From Candidatus Latescibacterota bacterium (GTDB lineage Bacteria; Latescibacterota; UBA2968; UBA8231), in assembly GCA_965248355.1 (NCBI GenBank), contig OZ252098.1, positions 1,390,098-1,454,097 of the forward strand: DNA of 64,000 nt. Direction: 5' to 3'. Shown piece by piece: positions 4,026 through 51,672 of the stretch (positions are counted from its first letter, which is position 1; every line of letters begins with the position of its first letter). The translations under genes and the position numbers were made by a program. The notes below the pieces were generated by a model. It did not search any database, was not told the DNA's origin, and saw only the letters and a list, made by a program, of their open reading frames with translations.

Positions 4026-4934
4026 ATGCCATACGATCCGGAGAACCGCACCTTCGACTGCGACCCCACCCTGAACGACTCCCAGGTCCTCGAGTTCTGC
4101 CGCGAGGGCTACCTGATGCTCCCCGGCGCCGTCCCCGACGAGATCAACGAGCGCGCCTGCCGCTACCTGAACGGGGAGATCCCCGTCGATCCGTCGTGGA
4201 TGCCGGAGGGCCTGACCATCGAGGAGCTCGAGCGCATGCGCGGCACCCACGAGCCGAGCGGGATCCTGCTCGAGGACTGGTTCGTCGAGCACGTGCTGCT
4301 GAACCCCGCCCTGGCCGGGGCCATGCGCTCCCTCCTCGGCGCCCACGTCGGCCTGCCGGTCCTCGTCAGCAACCACAGGGTCGAGTGTCCCGGCGAGGCT
4401 CAACGCTGGCACCACGACGCCGACCGGGTCTTCGGCCCCGAGCTGGAGTTCGCCGAGGTCTTCTACTTCCCCCAGGACACGCCGCCCGAGCTGGGGCCCA
4501 CCGAGATCGCCCCGCGCACCCACATCTCCCGCAGCGACGGCGACTTCACCGGCGAGGGCGTCCTCGCCGGGGGGCCCGCCGGCACCCTGGGCATCCACCA
4601 CCAGAGCATCCTGCACCGCCGCGGCGCCTCCACAGCCACGGGGCTGCGCCACATGCTCAAGTACAACTACTGGCGCACCTCGCCCCCCTGCCGCGACTGG
4701 ATCGACGACCCGGAGTTCGACCCGCGCACCGCCACGTACGGCGGCCACGCCCACTGCCAGTACGTGGCCCACATGTTCTGGTGGCTCCAAGGCAAGGGGG
4801 ACGAGTACCGCATCATCGGGGGCCAGGGCTGGCCCTTCCGCACCCCGAACCAGATCGGCCCGTCCTACGGGTACGGACGGCCCGAGGGATACCAGCCCGA
4901 CTGGCGCCGGAACCCGGACGGGTACTCGCGCTGA
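4026..4934 (+). CDS. Phytanoyl-CoA dioxygenase (PhyH)-family Fe(II)/2-oxoglutarate oxygenase
   Basis: 'HHDAD...H' 2-His-1-carboxylate arrangement and overall PhyH-like layout. Confidence 0.65.
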   Translation: MPYDPENRTFDCDPTLNDSQVLEFCREGYLMLPGAVPDEINERACRYLNGEIPVDPSWMPEGLTIEELERMRGTHEPSGILLEDWFVEHVLLNPALAGAMRSLLGAHVGLPVLVSNHRVECPGEAQRWHHDADRVFGPELEFAEVFYFPQDTPPELGPTEIAPRTHISRSDGDFTGEGVLAGGPAGTLGIHHQSILHRRGASTATGLRHMLKYNYWRTSPPCRDWIDDPEFDPRTATYGGHAHCQYVAHMFWWLQGKGDEYRIIGGQGWPFRTPNQIGPSYGYGRPEGYQPDWRRNPDGYSR

Positions 4935-5240: not shown

Positions 5241-5409
5241 TCGGAGTTTCTTCGCTACCCTCGAAACCGACTTGCCGGACCGTCATGAGCTACTATCGAA
5301 AGGTGTGGAAAAAGAGAAAAGGCGACCCTACCCTTCCTAATTAGCAGCACACCACGAACGGCCCGGGTGACGCCGGGCCTGGAAGGAGAGAGTCGCCGTG
5401 AAGGAATCT

Positions 5410-6774
5410 GGCTCATCCGGGATTACTGTGGGTAGCCCCAACATGTTGTGGTCGCGGGTAGAGGTCGAGTCCGCCGCAATGGAAGTAGATGGCGGTCTGG
5501 AAGTTCGTGCGGTTGCGATAGCCTCGGGCCAGGCGCTTGACCTTCTCCACCTGGGCGTTCACCGCCTCGTTGAGGGCGTTGGTGATCCGGTGTCGCAGGT
5601 AGGTCAGGATGTTGTCCAGGCGCCGCTTCAGCGTGCGGGCCACGGCGATCACCGGCGGCAGACGGCTATGGGTGGCCCAGAAGTACCAGCGTCGGAAGAA
5701 GCGACGGGCCCACCCTTCCCGGCGGTAGGTCCACAGCTGGCGCAGATTCTCCTTCAGGGCCCAAGCGCGGCTGACCTGCAGGTCCATGGACCGCAACTCC
5801 TCGAACCGGGGCAGCAGGGCCTCGGGGATCCGGTCGGGGTGGTAGAGCCACAGATACTTGGTCCCCGTGAGGCACCTCGTCGTGCTGGGCCCGCAGCTTC
5901 TTGTGTTCTTGGCGGCGCACCCGGTCGACGGCCTCATTCATCAGTCGCAGGACGTGGAACTTGTCGAACACGATCTTGTCCTGGGCGTCGGGCACCCAGG
6001 CTTTCACGGCCGCGATGTAGGGGTCGTGCATGTCCAGGCAGATGGCCTCGATCCGCTCCAACTCCTCTTCGTCGAAGGGGAGGAAATACGCCTCCAGACT
6101 CTCCCGGCCCCGACCGTCGGCCACGTGTTCCACGCTCTGGGTCTGCAGGTCGCAGACCAGGGTCATGTACCGGTGGCGCTTGGCGAAGGCCTTCTCGTCG
6201 ACGCCGAGATGGACCGGCACCTTCCACACCTTACGGCGCTGACCCCGGTCCACGGCGCGGCCCATGACCCCCCCACAGCGATCCCAACTGAGCCCGGTGA
6301 GGCGGCTCACCGCCTCGAGGCTGCACTCCTTGGCCAAGTCGATGACGTGGGCCTCCAGGGCCCGGGTCAGACCCGAGCCGGGCTCGGCCCACTCGGAGGC
6401 GATGGAGAGCACGCCGTGGACCCGGCACTGGACCCGGGGCAGGCGGGTATGGACGTAGGTCGGCAGATCGCAGGTGTCCAGATGGCGCCATTCCCGCTCG
6501 GGGGCATGGTCGTAAACGGGACACCAAGCGTCACAGCGCGGGCAGCGCATTTTGACCCCGCGCTCATGGTCCACGTAGACATCGACCCGCTCCTGGTCCT
6601 GGAACCGCACCTCGAGCACGATCCAGGGGCGCTCGATGCGAAGCAGACGGGCATAGAACTGCTTGAGGTCGTCCATGGGCGGCCCTCCCCGATGGCGGTG
6701 GCAAGGGACTGCGAGGCTCGATCCCTATGATACCACAACATCTTGGGGGTCCCCACTCTCAACCCGGATGAGCC
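5410..6774 (-). mobile_element. ISL3-family insertion sequence with 8-bp target-site duplication AGGAATCT
   Basis: 43-bp terminal inverted repeats: 5410–5452 'ggctcatccgggattactgtgggtagcccc...' matches the reverse complement of 6732–6774. The 8-bp direct repeat 'aggaatct' lies at 5402–5409 and 6775–6782. Insertion site is about 30 bp upstream of the IS256 transposase start. Confidence 0.8.
5413..6676 (-). pseudogene. ISL3-family transposase, frameshifted (two overlapping ORFs of 336 and 174 aa)
   Basis: The N-terminal ORF has a zinc-finger motif 'CPRCDAWCPVYD' and a DDE region. The C-terminal ORF carries '...YRNRTNFQTAIYFHCGGLDLYP'. The frame changes around 5860–5940. Confidence 0.75.
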
Positions 6775-6806
6775 AGGAATCTACGCTGGCGTTCCCCCCC
6801 GCGTCC

Positions 6807-7136
6807 ATGCCCAGTTGGGAGACCTTGGAAGGCTGGGCTCGCTCTCAGATCCAGGACCTGCTGCAGCGAGTGTTGGAGGAGGAGGTGACCGAAGTGCTGG
6901 GGCGCACGCGGTATGCGCGCCGATCGGCGGTGGACGGCCCTCCGGGCTCGCGCAACGGCTATGGCAAGCCGCGGCGGCTGTCCCTGATGTCGGGCACCAT
7001 CGAGGTAAGACGGCCGCGGGTCCGGGGGCTGGAAGAGCGCTTTGAGAGCCGCATCCTGCCGCTGTTCCAGCGACGCACCCGCGAGGTGACCCAGCTGTTG
7101 CCCGAGCTCTACCTGCACGGGCTGTCGCAGGGCGAC
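6807..7136 (+). pseudogene. IS256-family (Mutator-type) transposase, N-terminal fragment cut by the IS3 insertion
   Basis: 'NGYGKPRRLSLMSGTIEVRRPRVRGLEERFESRILPLFQRRTREVTQLLPELYLHGLSQGD' is a typical IS256 N-terminus. The reading frame is broken after GD at 7136. Confidence 0.7.
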
Positions 7137-7194
7137 TGGAGTTGCCCCCGTTTGGTGGACATCCCCGATATTTGGGCAAAAGGAGGATGTCCTC

Positions 7195-7509
7195 ATGCCA
7201 CAGTCTCACCGTCCGTATCCGCCTGAGTTCCGCCAGCAGATGGTCGAGCTGGTGAGAGCCGGGCGGACCCCCGAGCAGTTGAGCCAGGAGTTCGAGCCCT
7301 CGTCCCAGGCGATTCGCAACTGGGTGCGCCAGGCGGATCGCGACGAGGGGCGGGGAGCCGAGGGAGTCACCCGCGCCGAGCGGGACGAGTTGCGGCGCCT
7401 GCGCCGGGAGAACAAGCGCCTGCGCACGGAGCGGGAGATTCTGTCAAAAGCCGCCACCTGGTTCGCTCGGGAGGCCGATTCGAGGTCGTCGAGGTCTTCG
7501 GATTCGTGA
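7195..7509 (+). CDS. IS3-family transposase OrfA (HTH)
   Basis: 'ELVRAGRTPEQLSQEFEPSSQAIRNWVRQ' HTH motif and a leucine-zipper-like C-terminus. An RBS 'aaaggagg' precedes the ATG. Confidence 0.8.
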   Translation: MPQSHRPYPPEFRQQMVELVRAGRTPEQLSQEFEPSSQAIRNWVRQADRDEGRGAEGVTRAERDELRRLRRENKRLRTEREILSKAATWFAREADSRSSRSSDS

Positions 7510-9185
7510 GCGCTCACCAGGATCAGTATCCCATCGCCACCATGTGCCGCGTCCTGGGCGTCTCCCCCAGCGGGTACTATGCGTGGCGCCGCCGGCAGCC
7601 GTCGGCGCGCTCCTTGTCCGATGCGCAGTTGACGCCCTTGATCGACCAGGTCCACACGTGGTCGCGAGGCACCTACGGGGTGCCGCGCATGGTCCGGGAG
7701 TTGAGAGCTCGCGGACAGCCCGTCAACCCCAAGCGCGTGGCTCGCCTGATGCGGGAGGCCGGCTTGCAGGGCGTCAGCCGCCGCAAGTCGACGTGTACCA
7801 CGCGGCGCGACGCGGACGCTCCGGCGGCGCCCGACCTGGTCGACCGCGACTTCGCGGCGGCCGGTCCGGACGCGTTGTGGGTGGCGGACATCGAGCGCCA
7901 CGAGGCGCTGTGGCACCGTGCGGTGGTGAAAGGCCACCGCCTTCAGTCCGTCGCAGCGGGCTGACGTAGCTGAGGGCAGCCGGATCCCAGGGGACGCGGG
8001 AGAAGGCGACAAGCCGCCCTGACAAAGCCGGGACGGACCAGCACCGTCAGATGGGCCGGGTCCGGCGAGCGAGACAGGAAGGTGTACGCAAGGAACCAGT
8101 GTCAAACGCCCCTCAGGAGACCCACCAGCTCGAACCTGACGGATCCGGGCTGGGTTGCGGTGCGCACTGGCACCGGAGTGGTGCCGGAAACTCCCGCGTC
8201 GGTCGATGTCGCCGGCAGGGAGGCCACGGGGAAGGACTGCGGCGTAACCGTGGCGATACCGCAGGGGCATAGTTGGGCACCTCCCCTGTCGAACGGTGGA
8301 ACAGGGAACGTGGGAACCCTCCCAGCGGCCCCACCCCGGTCCGCTTCGGGCGGACCGGCGGGAAGGCTCGTCGCCAGCTGATGCCGAGGGGAGGGGGCGG
8401 AGGGGCCGTAGTAGTCCGAGGCCGGGAAAGCCGGTCACATGGCGAAGGACCCCAGCGTGTTCGCAGCCACGATACATCCCATGGAGGCCGCTGATGAACA
8501 TCGGCGCACCGTGGCCCGACCTCGAAGAGGCCGAGCCCCGGGTACGAGGAATGCAATCGAAGCTGCACCAGTGGGCGGTGGCCACTGAGCCGCCACCCAT
8601 CGGCATGAACACGGGGAGAGCCGGATGCGGCGAGAGTCGCACGTCCGGTTCGGAGGGCGGACCGCAGAAACCCACTCGTTGCGAAACGAACAGGGCGCTG
8701 CGGTCCGACCCTACACCTACGTGCCGACGTGGTCTGGATTCCTGTATCTGGCCGTGGTCCTGGACGCCTGGAGCCGGCGCGTGGTGGGGTGGGCCATGGC
8801 CGGTCATCTGCGGACGGAGTTGGTCGTGCAGGCCTTGGACATGGCCCTCGGGCAACGACGTCGTCCGGAGGGGGTGATTCATCACTCGGATCAGGGATGC
8901 CAGTATTCGTCGCTGGCCTTCGGGCGCCGTTGCCGGGAGGCCGGGGTGCGGCCGTCGAGGGGCTCGGTGGGCGACTGCTACGACAACGCCCTGTGTGAGA
9001 GCTTCTTCGCCACCCTCGAGTGTGAGCTGCTCGACCGTCGCTGCTTCCCGACGCATGAGGTCGCCCGCCGCGAGATTTTTGACTACATCGAGTCTTGGTA
9101 CAACCGGCATCGCCGTCACTCGGCCCTCAACTACGAATCGCCGATGAACTTCGAACGCGCCCATGTCCAGCCGCAGGTTGCCTGA
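7506..9185 (+). CDS. IS3-family transposase OrfB (integrase/DDE), split by an 822-bp intron-like insertion
   Basis: Exon 1 (7506–7892) ends '...DALWVADI' and exon 2 (8715–9185) starts 'TYVPTWSGFLYLAVVLDAWSRRVVGWAM...' (rve domain). Exon 1 is in the −1 frame relative to orfA. The insertion is a multiple of 3 (822 bp) but contains stops. Removing it gives a canonical 286-aa OrfB. Confidence 0.7.
7893..8714 (+). mobile_element. ORF-less (intron-encoded-protein-deleted) group II intron inserted in IS3 orfB
   Basis: Canonical domain V at 8618–8651 (GAGCCGGAUGCGGCGAGAGUCGCACGUCCGGUUC: AGC triad, GNRA loop). A domain-VI-like helix (ggaccgcag/ctgcggtcc) has a bulged A 7 nt from the 3' end '...CCCUAC'. 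The boundaries exactly restore the OrfB frame. A vestigial ORF from 8494 encodes the RT/maturase N-terminal motif 'RVRGMQSKLHQWA' and then runs into domain V. The 5' end is GAGCG rather than the consensus GUGYG. Confidence 0.7.
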
Positions 9186-9403
9186 TGCGGGATCTGTTCG
9201 CCATGAAGCGGATCTTCCCGGGCCCTCCCGGGACCAGCCGGTGCTCTCCCGACCACCCGGTCTCTCGCACCGGGCCGGGGCGCCACACCGGTACCCCGAG
9301 CTCCACCCGGGCTCCGGGGCCGGGGTACTCCCACTCTACAACTTCCACATTCGGCAAAACCTGCCGAAAGCACTTAACTGTCCACCGTACGGGGGTAGCT
9401 CCA

Positions 9404-10254
9404 GACTTCGAGTTGGCCTTGCGGGGTCTGCTGGGGGGCGCCCCTGTCGGCCTCGTCCATCGCCCGTCTGCGGGCCACGTGGGAAGAGCAGTTCGAGACC
9501 TGGCAGCAGCGGCGGCTGGACGACCGGGAGTTGGTCTACGCTTGGGCCGACGGTATCTACGTGAAGGCCGGCCTGGAGAAGGACAAGGCGGCGTTGCTGG
9601 TCGTCATCGGAGCCCTGAGCGACGGCCGCAAGGAGATCCTGGCGATCCGTGCTGCGCGATCTTCGGGACCGCGGGCTGCCGGCGCCGCGGTTGGTGCTGG
9701 CCGATGGCGGCCTGCCGATCTGGAGCGCCGTCGACCAGGTCTGGCCCGAGGCCGCGCAGCAGCGCTGCTGGAATCACAAGATCCTCAACGTGCTCAACGA
9801 CCTGCCCAAGCGCGTGCAAGGCGCCGCCCGGGCGCTGCTGACGCAGATCCCCACGGCCAAGACCCGTCTGCAAGCCCAGAGACGACGCGACCGCTTCGTG
9901 GCCCGCTACGGCGAGGCCTATCCGGCCGCGTCGGCCACCCTCGAGCGCGACTGGGAGCGCATGGTCACGTTTTGCGACTTCCCGGAGGCGCACTGGAGGC
10001 ACCTGCGCACCACCAATCCGGTGGAGAGCCCCTTTGCCTCGGTCCGTTTGCGGACCAACGCGGGCAAACGCTACAAGCGGGTACAGGGAGCCACCGCCCT
10101 CATCTGACGCGTGCTGAGGGTGGCCGAGACACGATTCCGCAAGCTCAACGCGCCGGAGCTCCTGCCGGCGGTCTACGCCGGACGGAGATGCCAGGACGGC
10201 CAACCCGTCCAAGGGTTGTCCTCCACCGAGGAAGGAATCAAGAGGGCCGCCTGA
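9404..10254 (+). pseudogene. IS256-family transposase, C-terminal portion (frameshifts and an in-frame stop)
   Basis: Three frames carry, in turn, 'DFELALRGLLG', 'LVYAWADGIYVKAGLEKDKAALLVVIGALSDGRKEILAI', and 'CWNHKILNVLNDLPK...FPEAHWRHLRTTNPVES'. A TGA lies at 10105–10107 where a W is expected. The conserved tail 'RVLRVAETRFRKLNAPELL...' continues to 10254. Confidence 0.7.
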
Positions 10255-10627
10255 TCTCGTTTACACACCTTTTGACAGGACCTCCCGTCAGCGATTTGCC
10301 TGACGCCGCTGCAGGCCTTCAAGAAGGGGGTCCCAACCAAGCCCCGAGCCAAGGAGGCTGCCATGCAGAAAATCGCCGCCTAACCCTCATCCCCGAGCAG
10401 GGGCGAGTGTCAGGTCATTACCGTCACTGTAAACCCCGAGCCCAGGTCATTACCATCACTGCACACCAGTTCGTTAACCCTCTGGCGCTCGCGCAGGGCC
10501 TCCAGAGCCACCTTGGCTCCTTGACCTGTGCCGAATGCGTCTTCTTCCTCGCCATCCAGGCCCCTCCGGACAGTGGTTCGGTGCACGCAAAGTCTCGCTT
10601 AACCACCTGTCCAGGACTTGGGGTGCA

Positions 10628-11809
10628 TCACTGCCGCCGAGTTCTACCTGCGTTCTCACACAAAGACCGCAGTTCCTTAACTCGATCCAGCATGTCCAGA
10701 TCCCTGTAGGCATTCATCGCACCGTGCCATTGGGAAATGGCCTCTGGCACTCTGCCTATCCGGACGAGAAAGTAACCAAGGCTTGAACGCGAGTGTGCCA
10801 CTCCCTCCTGATTCCCCTCTAGTTGGAAAGCCTGCACTGCGGCACGCCACAGCTTCTCCGCCTCTCTCACATCCCCGCTTTCAGTACTTAATGATGCTGC
10901 GCGCGCATACACCACTGCCGGTGCCCTCTCCCCCGCAGCCTCGTAAGAGTGTAATGCTTCAATCACCAGTCGGTCCGCTCTACGGGCCTCCCCTGATCTA
11001 TCACATATCCAGGCTAACCTCACGGCCGCCACTGCAACGTGCAATGGGCGCTGCAGAAGTCGCAAGACCCTGAGTGCTTCCTCGAACCTGCCCCGAGCCG
11101 ACTCCCACTCCCCCCGTTCTGCGTGAATGTTGCCAATCTGCAAAGCCGTTAGGCCTTGAACGACCGACGGCTCCGCGTCTCTCAGCAGAGAGATCGCTCT
11201 GAGTAGAGCGCGCTCTGCCTCAGTCTCTCGCGATGACTCTAGGAAAAGCATGGCCAAGTCATGATATCCTCCACCCCTTGCCTCCTTACTCTCCTGTAGG
11301 CGGATCGCTGCCCTTAGCCGCTTCTCTGCCTCCAGCAGGCGACCCTGCCGTCGATATACATTGCCCAAGTTCTGTTCATCTACGGCCTGTGCGGCTCGAT
11401 CTCCAACCCCTCGGTGCCATTCGAGTGCGTATCCATGAAAAAGCTCCGCATCGTCCAAGTTCCCCTCAGAGCTTGCCAGCCATCCTAGGAAGCTGTAGTT
11501 GGCGGCAAGCCGGCCCTTGTCCTCTAGGTTCTTGTTGATCTCATAGGACTCCCAGACAAACTTCTCCGCCTGGATGCGGTTTCCTCGAGCCTCCTCTAGG
11601 TAGGCAAGCTCCAGGCACGCATCCGCAAAAATCCGCATCTCCTTCCCTTCAGAGGCAATCTCTCGGACTCTGCTCGCAAGCTCAGAACACCTTGCTAGGC
11701 CCCCCGCTTGCCTCTCTTGCTCCGCCTCCTTCAACCACTCCCTCAATTGCTGGACAGAACCAGATACGCGCTCCCTCTCAAGCCTTCGTGATTTGATGGA
11801 TCGACTCAC
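10628..11809 (-). CDS. TPR-repeat protein
   Basis: Repeated 34-aa units with W/LG/Y...A...A...P patterns through most of a 393-aa ORF. Local GC is about 56%. Confidence 0.55.
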   Translation of the reverse strand: MSRSIKSRRLERERVSGSVQQLREWLKEAEQERQAGGLARCSELASRVREIASEGKEMRIFADACLELAYLEEARGNRIQAEKFVWESYEINKNLEDKGRLAANYSFLGWLASSEGNLDDAELFHGYALEWHRGVGDRAAQAVDEQNLGNVYRRQGRLLEAEKRLRAAIRLQESKEARGGGYHDLAMLFLESSRETEAERALLRAISLLRDAEPSVVQGLTALQIGNIHAERGEWESARGRFEEALRVLRLLQRPLHVAVAAVRLAWICDRSGEARRADRLVIEALHSYEAAGERAPAVVYARAASLSTESGDVREAEKLWRAAVQAFQLEGNQEGVAHSRSSLGYFLVRIGRVPEAISQWHGAMNAYRDLDMLDRVKELRSLCENAGRTRRQ

Positions 11810-44899: not shown

Positions 44900-45808
44900 A
44901 TGACCATCACAGCCGACGTTCAGACCCTTCCGCAGCGCATCCTCGGCAAGACCGGCGAGCGCGTCCCCGTCCTCGGCCTCGGCTCGGCCTGCGGAGGACT
45001 GGGCCTGGGCGACGCCGAGGCGATCGAGCTCTACGAGAAGGCCATCGACCGCGGCGTCACCTACATCGACACCGCCCCGGGCTACGAGCGCGCCCAGCGG
45101 CAGCTCGGACACGTGGTGCCCCGCCGCCGCGACGAGCTCTTCCTGGTCACCAAGTCGCCCACCGCCGACGGCGCCGAGGCCGTGCGCCTGCTGGAGCAGA
45201 ACCTGCGCGATCTCGGCACCGACGCCGTGGACCTGTGCTACGTCCACTCCCTGGGCAACTACGACGTCGACCAGGTCCTGGCCCCCGACGGCGCCCTCGC
45301 CGGTTTGCGAGAAGCCCAGAGGCGGGGGCTGACCCGCTACGTCGGCTTCACCGCACATCACAAGACCGGAAGCTCGGAGCGCGTCCTCCGGGAGGCGGAG
45401 GTCGACGTCATCATGGTGGCCCTCAACTTCGTCGACCACCACACCTACGGCTTCGACCGCACCGTGCTGCCCCTGGCCGCCGAACGCAACGTCGGCGTGG
45501 CCGCCATGAAGGTCTACGGCGGCGCCGAGGCGATGGAGTACCAAACGCGGGAGGACGAGGACCAGCGCCCCTCCGCCCTGGAGGCCAGCGCCCCCGCCTT
45601 CGATCACGAACGCGCCCTGCGCTGGGCCCTCGGCCTGCCGGGCGTCAACGTCGCCGTGGTCGGCATGTACTCCGAGGAGGAGCTGGACCGCAACATCGAG
45701 TGGGCCCGCCGCTGGCAGCCGCTGACAGCGGAGGAGGAGGCGCAACTGCTGGAGGAAGGCCGGCGTATCGCCCGCTCCTGGGGCGACCACTACGGGGATA
45801 CCACATGA
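44900..45808 (+). CDS. Aldo/keto reductase-family oxidoreductase
   Basis: 'RILGKTGERVPVLGLGS...' with strong SD 'GAGGAGG' upstream. AKR-like 'IDTAPGY', 'HHKTG'. Confidence 0.7.
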   Translation: MTITADVQTLPQRILGKTGERVPVLGLGSACGGLGLGDAEAIELYEKAIDRGVTYIDTAPGYERAQRQLGHVVPRRRDELFLVTKSPTADGAEAVRLLEQNLRDLGTDAVDLCYVHSLGNYDVDQVLAPDGALAGLREAQRRGLTRYVGFTAHHKTGSSERVLREAEVDVIMVALNFVDHHTYGFDRTVLPLAAERNVGVAAMKVYGGAEAMEYQTREDEDQRPSALEASAPAFDHERALRWALGLPGVNVAVVGMYSEEELDRNIEWARRWQPLTAEEEAQLLEEGRRIARSWGDHYGDTT

Positions 45809-47139: not shown

Positions 47140-47594
47140 TACCACCACAAGACCGGAAGCCGGAACGCGTCCTCCGGGAGGCGCAGGTCGACGTCATCAT
47201 CGTAACCCTCAACTTCGACGACCACCACACCTACGGCTTCGACCGCACCGTGCTGCCCCTGGCGGCGGAGCGCAACGTCGGCGTGGCGGCCATGAAGGTC
47301 TACGGCGGCGCCGAGGCGATGGAGTACCGCACCGGTGAGGACGAGGACGGGCGCCCCTCCGCCCTGGAGGCAAACGCGCGGGACTTCGACCACGAGAGAG
47401 CCTTCCGCTGGGCCCTCGGCCTGCTTGGCGTCGGGGTCGCCGTGATCGGCATGTACTCGGAGAAGGAGCTGGACCACAACATCGAGTGGGCCCGCCGCTG
47501 GCAGCCGCTCACGGCGGAGGAGGAGGCGCAATTGCTGGAGGAGGGCCGGCGCATCGCCCGCTCCTGGGGCGACCACTACGGGGACCTGCTGTGA
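47140..47594 (+). pseudogene. Orphan, roughly 90%-identical duplicate of the 3' 455 bp of the AKR gene (45353–45808)
   Basis: Nucleotide and protein alignment: 'RVLREAQVDVIIVTLNFDDHHTYGFDRTVLPLAAERNVGVAAMKVYGGAEAMEY...' vs copy 1 '...REAEVDVIMVALNFVDHHTYGFDRTVLPLAAERNVGVAAMKVYGGAEAMEY...'. No 5' half. Confidence 0.7.
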
Positions 47595-48831: not shown

Positions 48832-51504
48832 TCAGAACGCCGTCGCCGAGACCGCCTTGGCGATCATCAGCGTGGCGGCGCAGAACATGCCCACCAGGGA
48901 CATGCCCACCCCGAAGCCGACGGCCAGGACCATGGCGTACTGGCGCCACTGCTGGCGGCCGTAGCGCGGCCAGAAGTAGTGCTTGGCGATGAGGGCGCCG
49001 ATGACCTCGGTGAACATGGCGAAGAAGGTCGCCGCGCCCGCCGAGGCCACGCCCCGGATGAAGCCCCAGACGAAGAACATGGGCATGCCGAGGAACCCGA
49101 GGATCGAGTAGAGGCCCAGGCCGAAGACCAGGCCCACGACCATGATGGGCCACTTCACGCCCTTCGTGGGGTGGCCCAGGTCCTCGTCGATCTCGCCGTC
49201 GCCGTCGTCGTCCTTCTGGTTGAGGACCTCCTCGTCGGCCAGGCCGTCGAAGTCCTCGTCGCGGCCGTCGCCCGTCGACTTCGGGTCCTTCCAGAAGATC
49301 TGGAAGAACATGGGGGTCTCCAGCGAGCCCTGGAAGAAGTCGCCCCGGAAGCCGGGATGCGTGTCCAGCTCGAAGAGACAGACCACCTCGCGGTCGTGCC
49401 AGGCCTCCGGCAGGCGCACGCGCAGCATGGTCTCGGCCTGGGCCACCACGCCGCCGTCGGCGGGAGACAGCCGCAGGGGCCGCGGCAGGTCCGGGTTGGT
49501 CCTGCTGTCCGGGGGCGGCTCGAGCAGGACCGGCTGCTGCCGGTCGGCGCCGGCGCCGGGGAAGTCGGTGTAGAAGTACCCCGTCGCCGACCAGGGCCCG
49601 TAGCGCCGCAGCCCGGGATTCTGGATCTGCACCTCGTCGGAGACCCGGACGCGCCAGTAGTAGAGGGAACGGTCCTTCAGGTTGGCCGGGCTCCAGGCCA
49701 CCTCTCCCGGGGGCAGGACGCGGCCCTCCACCTCTTCCCCCGCCTCGTAGGTGAGGCTGTACTGGGTCGCCGAGAACCGCACCGCCTCCTGGAAGGCGCG
49801 GGCGGGCCAGAAGGTCTGCACGTAGGGGTAGGCGTCGGAGGGGATGGGAGCCAGCTTCCACAGGAAGCTCCAGTACATCAGGCTGGCGCCGAGGACGATG
49901 GGCACCATGACCAGCTCCGCCTTCAGCAGGCTGGTGAAGCGCATCCCCGTCAGCTCGATGATGCGGAAGGTCTCGGCGTTGCCGCCGAAGTCGGCCCCCG
50001 CCAGGGGCACGAACCAGATCTCGACGCCGCGGTACCCGGTGAGAAAGACGATCGCCTCGTGCAGGTGCGGGATCTGCACGTTCTGCCCGATCAAGCCGTC
50101 CAACCGCGCCGAGACGAAGGACATGATGGGGGCGTAGACGAAGGCGAGGACCAGCATCACCACCAGGATGCCGGTGGTGACCAGCGACGGGAACAGGGTC
50201 TTGGCCAGGAGGAGGGGATAGGCGGCGGCGAGGAAGAACAGGCTGAGGCAGATCCACACCGGGAAGTCGCCCCGGTTGAGATGCTTCACGCAATAGCCGC
50301 GGATGCGGGACGGCTCATGGCACTCCGGGTGCCGGCAGACGTCGGGGTCGTGGCCTTGGGCCTCCGCCTCGGACCGGTCCTCCCGGTGCTCCCGGGTGCC
50401 GCGCACCACCTGCACCAGGGAGATGATGGTGGTGGCGAAGATGACGCCCAGCCCGAAGGGCTGCCAGAAGTCGACGCCGGCGGTGATCTGCGTCTGCACG
50501 GCGCCCATGCCCGGCACCCAGTGGGGCATGAACCCGTAGTGGTGCAGCAGCGGCGACAGGACGATGAAGGAGACGACCGCGGCGAAGGAGCCCATGACGC
50601 TGTAGAACGGCAGCAGCAGGCCGGCGAAGATCGGCGACAGGCTGAAGCTGATGGCGATCGGCGTGGCCCCGAGGTAGCGCCCCAGGGTCGGGGTGAGGTC
50701 GGCGAAGGGGATGGGCAGGATCGTGACCTTGGTGCCGGCGAAGACCTCGGTGAGGGACGGGATCCCCACGTAGACGAAACCGAAGACGAGGCCGATCGCC
50801 CCCCCCATGGTGAAGCAGGGCCACTTCCAGGTCTGCTTCTCCGAGCCGCTCTCCTCGGCCAGGGCCATGGCCCCGAGGGCGGCCTGGGGCGCCGTGGGGA
50901 AGGGCAGGCGCTCGCGGTCGGAGACCAGCCGGAAGAGGACGTACCCGGAGGTGAACCAGGTGATGCGGCCGACGATGATGCCCAGCACCAGCAGGGCGAT
51001 GGGCAGGGCCCAGTCCATGTGGAGGAAGGTGCGCTGCAGGATCGCCTCGGAGTCGGGCGGCGGCGAGAACCACCCGTACCCGAGCCACTTCAGGCCCACC
51101 AGCTTCTCCGTGAGGCCGAACTGGGCGGCCTCCTGGGAGCCGACGAAGTACTGCCGCCAGATCAGCTGCAGGAAGGTGCCGGTCTCGGCGCGCACGATCA
51201 GCTGCGAGGCGACGTAGGTGAGCAGGAAGATCTCCTGCCGCCTCAGGGTCGTGAAGGAGCGCTTGGCGATCTCCAGGAAGAGGATCACCGTCACCCACTG
51301 GGCCGCGTCGCCGATGCCGATGCCGGTCACCAGCGACAGGTACATCTGGCCCGGGGTCATGATGAAGGCGATGAACAGCACCCCCACCAGGGTCTTGATG
51401 GTGTACCCGTGCTCGAAGCGTTCCGGCGCCTGCAAGAGATCCCGGTATTCGTTGATCTCCTGGTACTGGCGCTCTCGCTTCGTCTGTCGGGATTTTTCCG
51501 CCAT
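48832..51504 (-). CDS. 890-aa polytopic membrane protein (at least 12 TM). Possibly an OPT-superfamily transporter with an inserted cytoplasmic Cys4 zinc-ribbon and a large extracytoplasmic domain.
   Basis: N-terminal 'YTIKTLVGVLFIAFIMTPGQMYLSLVTG' resembles the OPT-family entry motif. 'CRHPECHEPSRIRGYCVKH' is zinc-ribbon-like. Many hydrophobic helices. Confidence 0.45.
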   Translation of the reverse strand: MAEKSRQTKRERQYQEINEYRDLLQAPERFEHGYTIKTLVGVLFIAFIMTPGQMYLSLVTGIGIGDAAQWVTVILFLEIAKRSFTTLRRQEIFLLTYVASQLIVRAETGTFLQLIWRQYFVGSQEAAQFGLTEKLVGLKWLGYGWFSPPPDSEAILQRTFLHMDWALPIALLVLGIIVGRITWFTSGYVLFRLVSDRERLPFPTAPQAALGAMALAEESGSEKQTWKWPCFTMGGAIGLVFGFVYVGIPSLTEVFAGTKVTILPIPFADLTPTLGRYLGATPIAISFSLSPIFAGLLLPFYSVMGSFAAVVSFIVLSPLLHHYGFMPHWVPGMGAVQTQITAGVDFWQPFGLGVIFATTIISLVQVVRGTREHREDRSEAEAQGHDPDVCRHPECHEPSRIRGYCVKHLNRGDFPVWICLSLFFLAAAYPLLLAKTLFPSLVTTGILVVMLVLAFVYAPIMSFVSARLDGLIGQNVQIPHLHEAIVFLTGYRGVEIWFVPLAGADFGGNAETFRIIELTGMRFTSLLKAELVMVPIVLGASLMYWSFLWKLAPIPSDAYPYVQTFWPARAFQEAVRFSATQYSLTYEAGEEVEGRVLPPGEVAWSPANLKDRSLYYWRVRVSDEVQIQNPGLRRYGPWSATGYFYTDFPGAGADRQQPVLLEPPPDSRTNPDLPRPLRLSPADGGVVAQAETMLRVRLPEAWHDREVVCLFELDTHPGFRGDFFQGSLETPMFFQIFWKDPKSTGDGRDEDFDGLADEEVLNQKDDDGDGEIDEDLGHPTKGVKWPIMVVGLVFGLGLYSILGFLGMPMFFVWGFIRGVASAGAATFFAMFTEVIGALIAKHYFWPRYGRQQWRQYAMVLAVGFGVGMSLVGMFCAATLMIAKAVSATAF

Positions 51505-51672
51505 CAGGCCACCTGTCGCAGGGCGAGATCAGCCAACAAGAGTTTCGCGCCAGCGAAACTCGCAACAAAGCCGCGCAGCGGCTTTGCGATCTCCTGGTAC
51601 TGGCGCTCGCGCTTCGTCTGTCGGGGTTTTTCCGCCATCAGGCCGCCTGTCGCAGGGCGGGATCAACCCACA
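51461..51672. repeat. Tandem direct duplication (about 85 bp ×2, 45-bp spacer) of the 5' end and leader of the 890-aa gene, with hairpins in the spacer
   Basis: 51461–51545 and 51590–51672 are roughly 90% identical. Copy B encodes a decoy 'MAEKPRQTKRERQYQEI...' start. The spacer holds a 9-bp-stem hairpin (gagtttcgc/gcgaaactc) and an 8-bp-stem hairpin. Confidence 0.6.

Follow-up and report, generated by a model that had tools for sequence, protein, structure and literature searches.

A non-autonomous group II intron without a reverse transcriptase splits an IS3-family transposase gene in a Latescibacterota genome

A 64-kb window of contig OZ252098.1 from a Candidatus Latescibacterota bacterium contains a non-autonomous group II intron that lacks a reverse transcriptase (RT) and lies within orfB, the transposase gene of an IS3-family insertion sequence (IS). 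The 822-nt intron occupies positions 7893-8714 of the window on the + strand, beginning with 5' GAGCG and ending with CCCUAC 3'. RT-less group II introns are a known but uncommon situation in bacteria. This copy has lost most of the open reading frame (ORF) for its intron-encoded protein (IEP), has kept its exon-pairing sequences, and belongs both to a family of RT-less siblings and to a lineage, termed A2 here, whose members carry A instead of U at the second intron position. The explanation that we favour, by a modest measure of confidence, is that of a trans-dependent, non-autonomous intron of the A2 clade, from which domain IVb was deleted and which was probably mobilised in trans.

Intron boundaries, ORF deletion and exon recognition

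The sole Rfam family match in the window is to RF00029 (domains V-VI), which spans the full model (1-77) and covers 8616-8714 on the + strand with a score of 63.3 bits against a gathering score of 40 (E 4e-10). A group II intron with canonical domains V and VI, the core of the original prediction, is thereby confirmed. That prediction had been made from the sequence alone; its placement of domain V, with an AGC triad, a 2-nt bulge and a GAGA loop, agrees with both the sequence and the Rfam alignment, and the bulged adenosine that it placed 7 nt from the ...CUAC end of domain VI is A8708, the 7th base from the intron's 3' end. The Infernal/Rfam scan proposed as a check was borne out for RF00029 but not for the group-II-D1D4 models: families 1-7 (RF01998-RF02012), searched over 7000-9500, had no match even when E values as high as 10 were admitted, and so assign the clade to no structural class. 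Identity to full-length relatives is 74-79% across domains I-III. Their consensus structure was predicted by RNAalifold from RT-bearing relatives only and was not curated; 154 of its 167 pairs (92%) form in the window copy, and the RT-bearing relatives form 90-99% of them.

The intron boundaries are defined by an empty site. A metagenome contig (L001) carries an intron-less copy of the same IS3 element, which aligns to window positions 7135-7892 and 8714-9412. Because this copy joins both flanks at a single base, GGATATC^ACCTAC (also ...GGCGGATATC^ACCTAC, where ^ marks the insertion point), the boundaries are set at 7893-8714, with a 1-nt ambiguity at a C. The insertion therefore coincides with the orfB junction, as had been proposed. 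Excision joins ...LWVADI to TYVPTW... and restores a stop-free protein of 285 aa with the Pfam domains HTH_21, rve and rve_3, so the precise split of orfB that the original prediction described is real. The unspliced orfB frame continues into the intron and reaches a stop at 7962-7964, in keeping with the earlier claim that expression of the transposase depends on intron removal. Measured against the boundary consensus GUGYG...AY, the 3' AC fits and the 5' GAGCG, correctly read at the outset, deviates by an A for U at position 2.

The missing portion of the intron is its coding region. In the alignment to the full-length intron of the Rhodococcus plasmid pNit (L002), positions 1-685 and 704-819 of the window intron are covered; compared with full-length relatives, some 1350 nt of RT/maturase coding sequence in domain IVb are absent, as expected from the suggested loss of the IEP by internal deletion. 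Domains I-III, the domain IV (DIV) stem, domain V and domain VI are all present, and only IEP residues 1-32 are detected by tblastn. A remnant of the RT/maturase before domain V had been foreseen and is there, although at about 30 codons it is slightly larger than the 25 or so claimed. The last ~20 nt of the ORF are kept as well, with the old TGA stop codon (8606-8608) no longer in frame. Also preserved is the start-codon arm of DIV, the protein-binding site in well-studied introns (Table 1). As the intron has no RT or maturase of its own, any protein help would have to come in trans, and to this extent the earlier view of a maturase supplied from elsewhere is supported; splicing itself, and its dependence on such a protein, we infer from sequence.

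Exon recognition is also intact, with EBS1 and EBS2 (exon-binding sites 1 and 2) complementary to the intron-binding sites IBS1 and IBS2 in the 5' exon (Table 1). Four different covarying EBS2/IBS2 pairs occur among relatives; in the same alignment column, AGCCA/UGGCU is found in L066 and L091, GACCA/UGGUC in L081 and L129, and UUCCC/GGGAA in L118. For the 3' exon, U8270 is a candidate EBS3. Where the 3' exon begins with A, this column holds U; it holds A opposite exon U in L081 and L038, and G opposite exon C in L072, while L129 and L013 do not fit; C8204, the base immediately 5' of EBS1, cannot pair with A8715. The clade is thus a candidate for IIB-style exon recognition, with EBS1, EBS2 and the putative EBS3.

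Table 1. Features of the intron and of its host IS3 element, in coordinates of the 64-kb window
Feature	Position	Strand	Details
IS3-family insertion sequence	7138-9403	+	1444 bp without the intron; homology to the L001 copy over 7135-9412
IS3 terminal inverted repeats, 25 nt	7138-7162 (TGGAGTTGCCCCCGTTTGGTGGACA) and 9379-9403		read in the sequence
Target duplication GAC, 3 bp	7135-7137 and 9404-9406		read in the sequence
IS3 orfA	7195-7509	+	104 aa, Pfam HTH_Tnp_1; identical protein encoded in L001
IS3 orfB exon 1	7506-7892	+	ends ...LWVADI
IBS2 UGGGU	7878-7882 (-15 to -11)	+	complementary to EBS2
IBS1 GACAUC	7887-7892 (-6 to -1)	+	complementary to EBS1
EBS2 ACCCAC, domain I	8120-8125	+	pairs with exon 7877-7882, 5-6 of 6
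EBS1 GAUGUC, domain I	8205-8210	+	6/6 complementary to IBS1; homologous loop in all relatives
Candidate EBS3 U8270 (CAUAG loop)	8270	+	pairs with first 3'-exon base A8715
Domain IV remnant	8456-8613	+	RNAfold of 8450-8614, -72.8 kcal/mol
DIV basal stem CGUGUUC / GAACACG	8456-8462 / 8607-8613	+	covaries in relatives
DIV arm, Shine-Dalgarno GGAGG and start codon ATG	8483-8487 and 8494-8496	+	kept
IEP remnant, ~30 codons (MNIGAPWPDLEEAEPRVRGMQSKLHQWAVA)	from ATG 8494-8496	+	tblastn
Hairpin GGGCGGUGGC / GCCGCCACCC	8573-8598	+	6-nt loop 8583-8588 is the ORF-deletion junction; RNAfold and alignment with L127, L125, L129 and full-length relatives
Domain V	8618-8651	+	AGC triad 8619-8621, AC bulge, GAGA tetraloop; Rfam alignment
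Domain VI	8654-8714	+	bulged branch-point candidate A8708; intron end C8714; Rfam alignment and relatives
IS3 orfB exon 2	8715-9185	+	TYVPTW... to stop codon; encodes the rve catalytic core

The GAGCG end and the A2 clade

The original prediction regarded the GAGCG start as a sign of degeneracy, and here it was mistaken. One genome per species was scanned for the first 19 bases of the intron with any base allowed at position 2, and only BLAST-supported homologues were kept. The counts include homologues with enough 5' exon, among them metagenome copies found later, and leave out L074 (A2) and three loci with U at position 2 (U2), which lack it. All ten A2 homologues, in addition to the window copy, lie at W-x-x-D-x sites and none at other sites; the U2 homologues are divided between 2 at W-x-x-D-x sites (L100, L033) and 43 elsewhere. 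Six A2 introns, from Streptomyces, Rhodococcus, Nocardioides, Lentzea and Solirubrobacterales, are full-length (2.16-2.20 kb) and carry complete RVT_1 and GIIM ORFs. Since these RT-bearing relatives share the deviation, GAGCG is evidently a heritable and workable lineage variant of the 5' motif rather than a product of decay, and it gives no ground for excluding the intron. Moreover, L002 and L074, both A2, are 99.4% identical while residing in different Rhodococcus species and different exons, which indicates recent movement of A2 introns.

Chance or a mis-set boundary as the source of GAGCG is ruled out by the empty site and by U2 relatives, whose alignment keeps the same register. The possibility that A2 has a compensating partner was considered and rejected: in the alignment of domains I-III and V-VI, no column covaries with position 2 or separates A2 from U2, phylogenetic markers aside. 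A2 and U2 sequences are interleaved in a neighbour-joining tree. The literature yielded nothing pertinent on GAGCG ends or on the role of the second nucleotide.

A blastn search of plasmids gave 153 records with related introns, mostly from Streptomyces and Rhodococcus, and the homologues in reference genomes are all from Actinomycetota. Across loci L002-L124, the clade inserts directly downstream of the codons that specify the first catalytic-aspartate motif in DDE transposases, namely W-x-x-D-(I/F)^ in IS3, HWEGDL^ in IS30 and LGVDEH(V/I)^ in ISL3. The clade's introns thus use conserved transposase codons as homing sites, with the A2 subclade inserting after W-x-x-D-(I/F) of IS3-family orfB. 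Full-length A2 relatives, such as those of Rhodococcus rhodochrous pNit (NZ_CP032676, ltrA WP_159419616.1) and Streptomyces sp. SID13031, have in common with the window intron their insertion at W-x-x-D-I^T of IS3 orfB, a 5' end of GAGCG, a 3' end of CCC(C)UAC and EBS1, and differ in their length of 2.16-2.20 kb and their complete RT/maturase. The one IEP checked, that of the pNit relative, has RVT_1 and GIIM and no Pfam HNH match.

Introns nested within introns were also observed in this clade and its surroundings. In the Rhodococcus pNit locus (L002, 5680-7711), the IS3 3' exon diverges 4 nt past the intron (ACCT^CATGGG...), and the insertion is compound, with a second related intron that has a GUGCG start and its own ltrA at about 6012. 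Further nested clade introns are found in L054 (about 7411), L049 (about 5476-5569), L101 (about 4663-4865) and L108 (about 1303). One nested copy is located behind the codons for RRFDDLF in the RT ORF of a related intron; others interrupt domain I in introns of the same type, following GCAGCCUGA or GAGGUGAGAGACC.

RT-less siblings, history and splicing competence

The window intron is not a lone degenerate copy: the original prediction missed at least four RT-less siblings at several sites. These were found by searching a protein collection with the remnant ORF, a search that returned only short ORFs, and then inspecting the contigs concerned. L127 (4400-5219) is complete at 820 nt and 93% identical to the window intron, with GAGCG...CCCUAC ends and a deletion junction in the same hairpin loop. 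It lies in an hsdS-like gene for a type I restriction specificity subunit (Pfam Methylase_S; LWVRDF^KGNDPRF), whose exon mimics the IS3 site at the nucleotide level, with IBS2 UGGGU and IBS1 GACUUC at the right spacing. L125 is a partial copy, 91% identical to the window intron, with the same junction; its host site is at the contig end. The copies L129-L131 measure 852 nt, are 84.5% identical to the window intron (BLAST, whole intron) and split another IS3-family gene (VWSWDI^SWLPG). They have the same 3' breakpoint and nine more codons on the 5' side, and their EBS2, GACCA, fits their own exon, UGGUC. Finally, L126 consists of the 5' part only, in a third IS3-like gene, and is 96% identical to the window intron; IEP residues 1-42 are followed by foreign DNA, and it has no RT of its own. 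Thus at least four RT-less siblings exist with identities of 84-97%, and IBS1/IBS2 matches are seen in the window, L127, L129-131 and L126. All five sampled copies of this sublineage are without an RT and occupy at least four different sites, and the DIV arm with the start-codon region is kept in all five.

In two of these siblings, L125 (432/433) and L126 (8399/8400), a different group II intron has entered immediately after the domain V hairpin (...GUCCGGUU^GUGUG...) to give a twintron; the equivalent window position, 8650/8651, is unoccupied. The inserted intron starts with GUGUGUCC, matches Rfam RF02003 (group-II-D1D4-4) and is unrelated to this clade. In L126 it has its own RVT_1 and GIIM ORFs, 35-38% identical to this clade's IEP. 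Its targeting of a stem-loop recalls class C introns, as a likeness only.

Because the same kind of RT-less RNA is present at four or more sites, the lineage was probably mobilised in trans, and copies would have moved after the ORF was lost. A further proposal, to which we give somewhat less than even credence, is that an A2 RT-less lineage persisted, diverged by up to ~15%, and spread among IS3-family genes and hsdS while retargeting EBS2.

The origin of the deletion admits several explanations. A 3' breakpoint, (A/C/T)TG(A/C)GC(C/T)GCC, is common to all four copies in which the flank survives, and the 5' breakpoints of the window, of L127/L125 and of L129 differ, lying a few to about 25 nt apart. 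Informative sites group the copies as ((window, L126), (L127, L125)), L129; eight derived states are common to the window and L126, and none to the window and L127. L126, with its longer ORF remnant, is therefore nested inside the RT-less group, and for this reason a single deletion followed by spread fits only with extra events; in its simple form it was not adopted. There may have been a single large deletion in an ancestor, after which copies were trimmed to the hairpin independently; large deletions may have recurred and converged on the DIVb stem; or copies may have recombined.

Under the favoured explanation, the IS3 transcript would fold, EBS1 would pair with exon positions -6 to -1 and EBS2 with -15 to -11, and a maturase from a related intron elsewhere in the cell would bind the DIV arm. 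A8708 would then attack the 5' splice site, and joining of the exons would restore the 285-aa OrfB. Without a maturase, only a truncated OrfB lacking the DDE core would be produced and the IS3 copy would stay silent.

Helix conservation was used to examine whether these RNAs remain constrained, by means of a terminal-branch test that measures the share of private helix substitutions that break a base pair. In RT-less copies, 12 of 38 pairs were broken (32%), compared with 23 of 203 (11%) in RT-bearing relatives (Fisher p = 0.004). The window, L126 and L127 together have 9 of 19 broken (47%), about the neutral expectation, while on the long L129 branch 3 of 19 are broken (16%) and 16 kept. In the window alone the counts are small, with 4 helix pairs broken and 3 kept. 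Relaxed constraint is usual in inserted copies of mobile elements. The recent RT-less copies thus look relaxed and the long L129 branch looks constrained, and the window copy itself gives no sign of ongoing selection on its helices. At 202 columns invariant in all other sequences, the window carries 6 private changes, a number comparable to the 5-8 of similarly isolated RT-bearing relatives; four of these six are shared with L126, which is at another site, and so predate the window insertion. The doubt that the original prediction cast on the competence of the ribozyme is therefore supported by the near-neutral helix breakage, and not by the 5' end that it gave as the reason. On the sequence evidence, the chances that the window copy is still splicing-competent appear evenly balanced.

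Several observations weigh against the trans-dependent explanation. Beyond the excess of broken pairs in RT-less copies, the window's own 4 to 3 and the nesting of L126, no RT/maturase other than IEP residues 1-32 was found in the 64-kb window by tblastn, and the L001 homing site, which differs by one base (GAUAUC), is without an intron. Furthermore, no RT-bearing sibling of >80% identity was found in exact-match scans of Joint Genome Institute (JGI) metagenome contigs and with short N-terminal queries, both of which are weak searches. The exact-match scans with the deletion junction GTGGCCACTGAGCCGCCACCCATC and with a window-specific domain I hairpin each gave 0 matches, and the JGI copies found later differ at both places. 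The N-terminal queries for a cognate RT returned only ORFs of 30-72 aa and cannot decide whether an RT-bearing cognate exists. Two candidates for cognates, P0008 and P0010, proved to be more distant, fragmented RT-bearing relatives.

The strongest rival is that the same element is a dead relic, which splices neither with nor without a maturase, inactivates its IS3 copy and decays neutrally. The helix changes in the window, and those in the window, L126 and L127 set against the 11% of RT-bearing relatives, point in this direction. So do the window's 92% of consensus pairs, the lowest value in its subclade, two relative-invariant positions that give G.A and G.G instead of U.G and G.U, the lack of an RT nearby within the 64 kb, and surroundings made of nested, partly broken IS elements. 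However, the counts are small, and the domain V triad, bulge and loop, the branch adenosine, EBS1, EBS2, the DIV stem and both intron ends are all intact. In addition, the four changes shared with L126 are older than the insertion, and the orfB exons are intact over 285 codons although the intron-less sister copy has decayed. A dead relic is therefore regarded as unlikely, while being a serious competitor.

According to a second rival, the ORF was lost in place: an RT-bearing intron homed into the IS3 element, its ORF was deleted there, the RT-less form never moved, and the other junctions arose independently by convergence on the top of the DIVb stem. It would account for the retention of more ORF (residues 1-42) in L126, the copy closest to the window, and for differing 5' breakpoints that always fall in the loop of the same hairpin. 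It is nevertheless improbable, as none of the five sites yielded an RT-bearing member of the sublineage, the four copies with a surviving flank share the 3' breakpoint sequence, and L129 combines an EBS2 fitted to its own target with a long constrained branch.

Protein-independent splicing, in which the compact ribozyme would self-splice in vivo without a maturase as proposed for C.te.I1 of Clostridium tetani, has a precedent in the robust in vitro self-splicing of that intron, from a genome without an IEP gene (PMC4424553), and suits the lack of a maturase in the window, but is very improbable given that all five siblings keep the DIV arm with the start-codon region, as expected if a protein still binds, and that the relatives all carry maturase domains.

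The host element and comparison with known systems

The assignment of the host to the IS3 family is based on an orfA with a helix-turn-helix domain, an overlapping orfB with an rve DDE core, inverted repeats, a 3-bp target duplication and a second copy in L001. The element is inserted within an IS256-like transposase gene (Pfam Transposase_mut; 6780-7137 and 9404-10107), which also carries a frameshift near 9650. Adjoining the IS256-like gene is an ISL3-like element (5408-6776) whose inverted repeats measure 45 nt, making the region a nest of insertion sequences. In L001, frameshifts and stops disrupt the orfB of the IS3 copy (9941-11399) beyond about residue 165, whereas the window exons are intact. 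Positions 1-255 of the same contig encode a sigma-54 activator, which is unusual in Actinobacteria; as the intron's relatives in reference genomes are all actinobacterial, the window may come from a host of another phylum. Elsewhere in the window are two direct repeats: one of 300 nt (45375-45674 and 47161-47460; 88% identity, 1786 nt apart) and one of 85 nt (51454-51538 and 51588-51672; 93% identity, 134 nt apart).

For the window genome the consequence is modest, with one IS3 copy switched off unless the intron is removed. The wider implications concern the lineage. If it is truly persistent, it would resemble miniature inverted-repeat transposable elements and be doubly parasitic, living in insertion sequences and borrowing the reverse transcriptase of other introns; it would also contradict the view that non-autonomous derivatives fail to persist in bacteria. 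A 5' end of GAGCG that works across a subclade matters to intron-finding pipelines that require GUGYG, and the subclade provides a natural U2A variant for structure-function work.

Bacterial ORF-less introns are described as rare, usually found alongside related IEP-encoding introns, and short-lived (PMC4424553). The window family resembles these reviewed derivatives in its IEP remnants and in its presumed reliance on related IEPs in trans, and differs from them in the divergence of its sublineage (84-97% identity) and in its four or more different sites.

With respect to the host, the window intron can be compared with RmInt1, which lies in ISRm2011-2 of Sinorhizobium meliloti and limits how far this host element spreads (PMC4238363, PMC3035460). 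RmInt1 has an IEP without an endonuclease domain, as the window's clade apparently does, and both have their home in an IS transposase gene; in both RmInt1 and the window intron the efficiency of splicing would gate expression and spread of the host IS. Unlike the window intron, RmInt1 has its own IEP, is highly mobile, has the canonical 5' motif and resides in an element that is not of the IS3 family.

The closest precedent is the group of ORF-less TeI3 introns of Thermosynechococcus elongatus, where mobilisation in trans has been documented for introns that lost their ORF (Mohr, Ghanem & Lambowitz 2010, PMC2882425). In this family, the one proliferating case that has been studied well, a deletion of ~1.5 kb in DIVb has left remnants of the ORF; the introns spread by retrohoming, driver IEPs act in trans, and both twintrons and an IEP interrupted by an IS occur. 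It serves as a model for how introns could come to depend on common trans-acting splicing machinery (PMC2882425). Both families have lost roughly 1.4-1.5 kb of DIVb (~1.35 kb in the window) and keep N- and C-terminal ORF remnants. In both, ORF-less copies occupy several sites, pair well through EBS/IBS and have diverged in their EBS sequences, and the siblings include twintrons and an IS-interrupted IEP region. The TeI3 introns, however, belong to the CL/IIB1 class with endonuclease-containing IEPs, are confined to one genome and have identical breakpoints, and their dependence on the IEPs of related introns was demonstrated, with the driver IEPs identified experimentally. In the window family, the breakpoints lie a few to about 25 nt apart, the tree speaks against a single clean deletion and no driver IEP was found; the relatives' IEP has no HNH match, the copies are distributed across several metagenome assemblies and the intron begins with GAGCG. 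A second, unrelated RT-less lineage, with relatives apparently devoid of an endonuclease and spread across transposase genes of uncultured bacteria, would thus broaden the picture drawn from TeI3.

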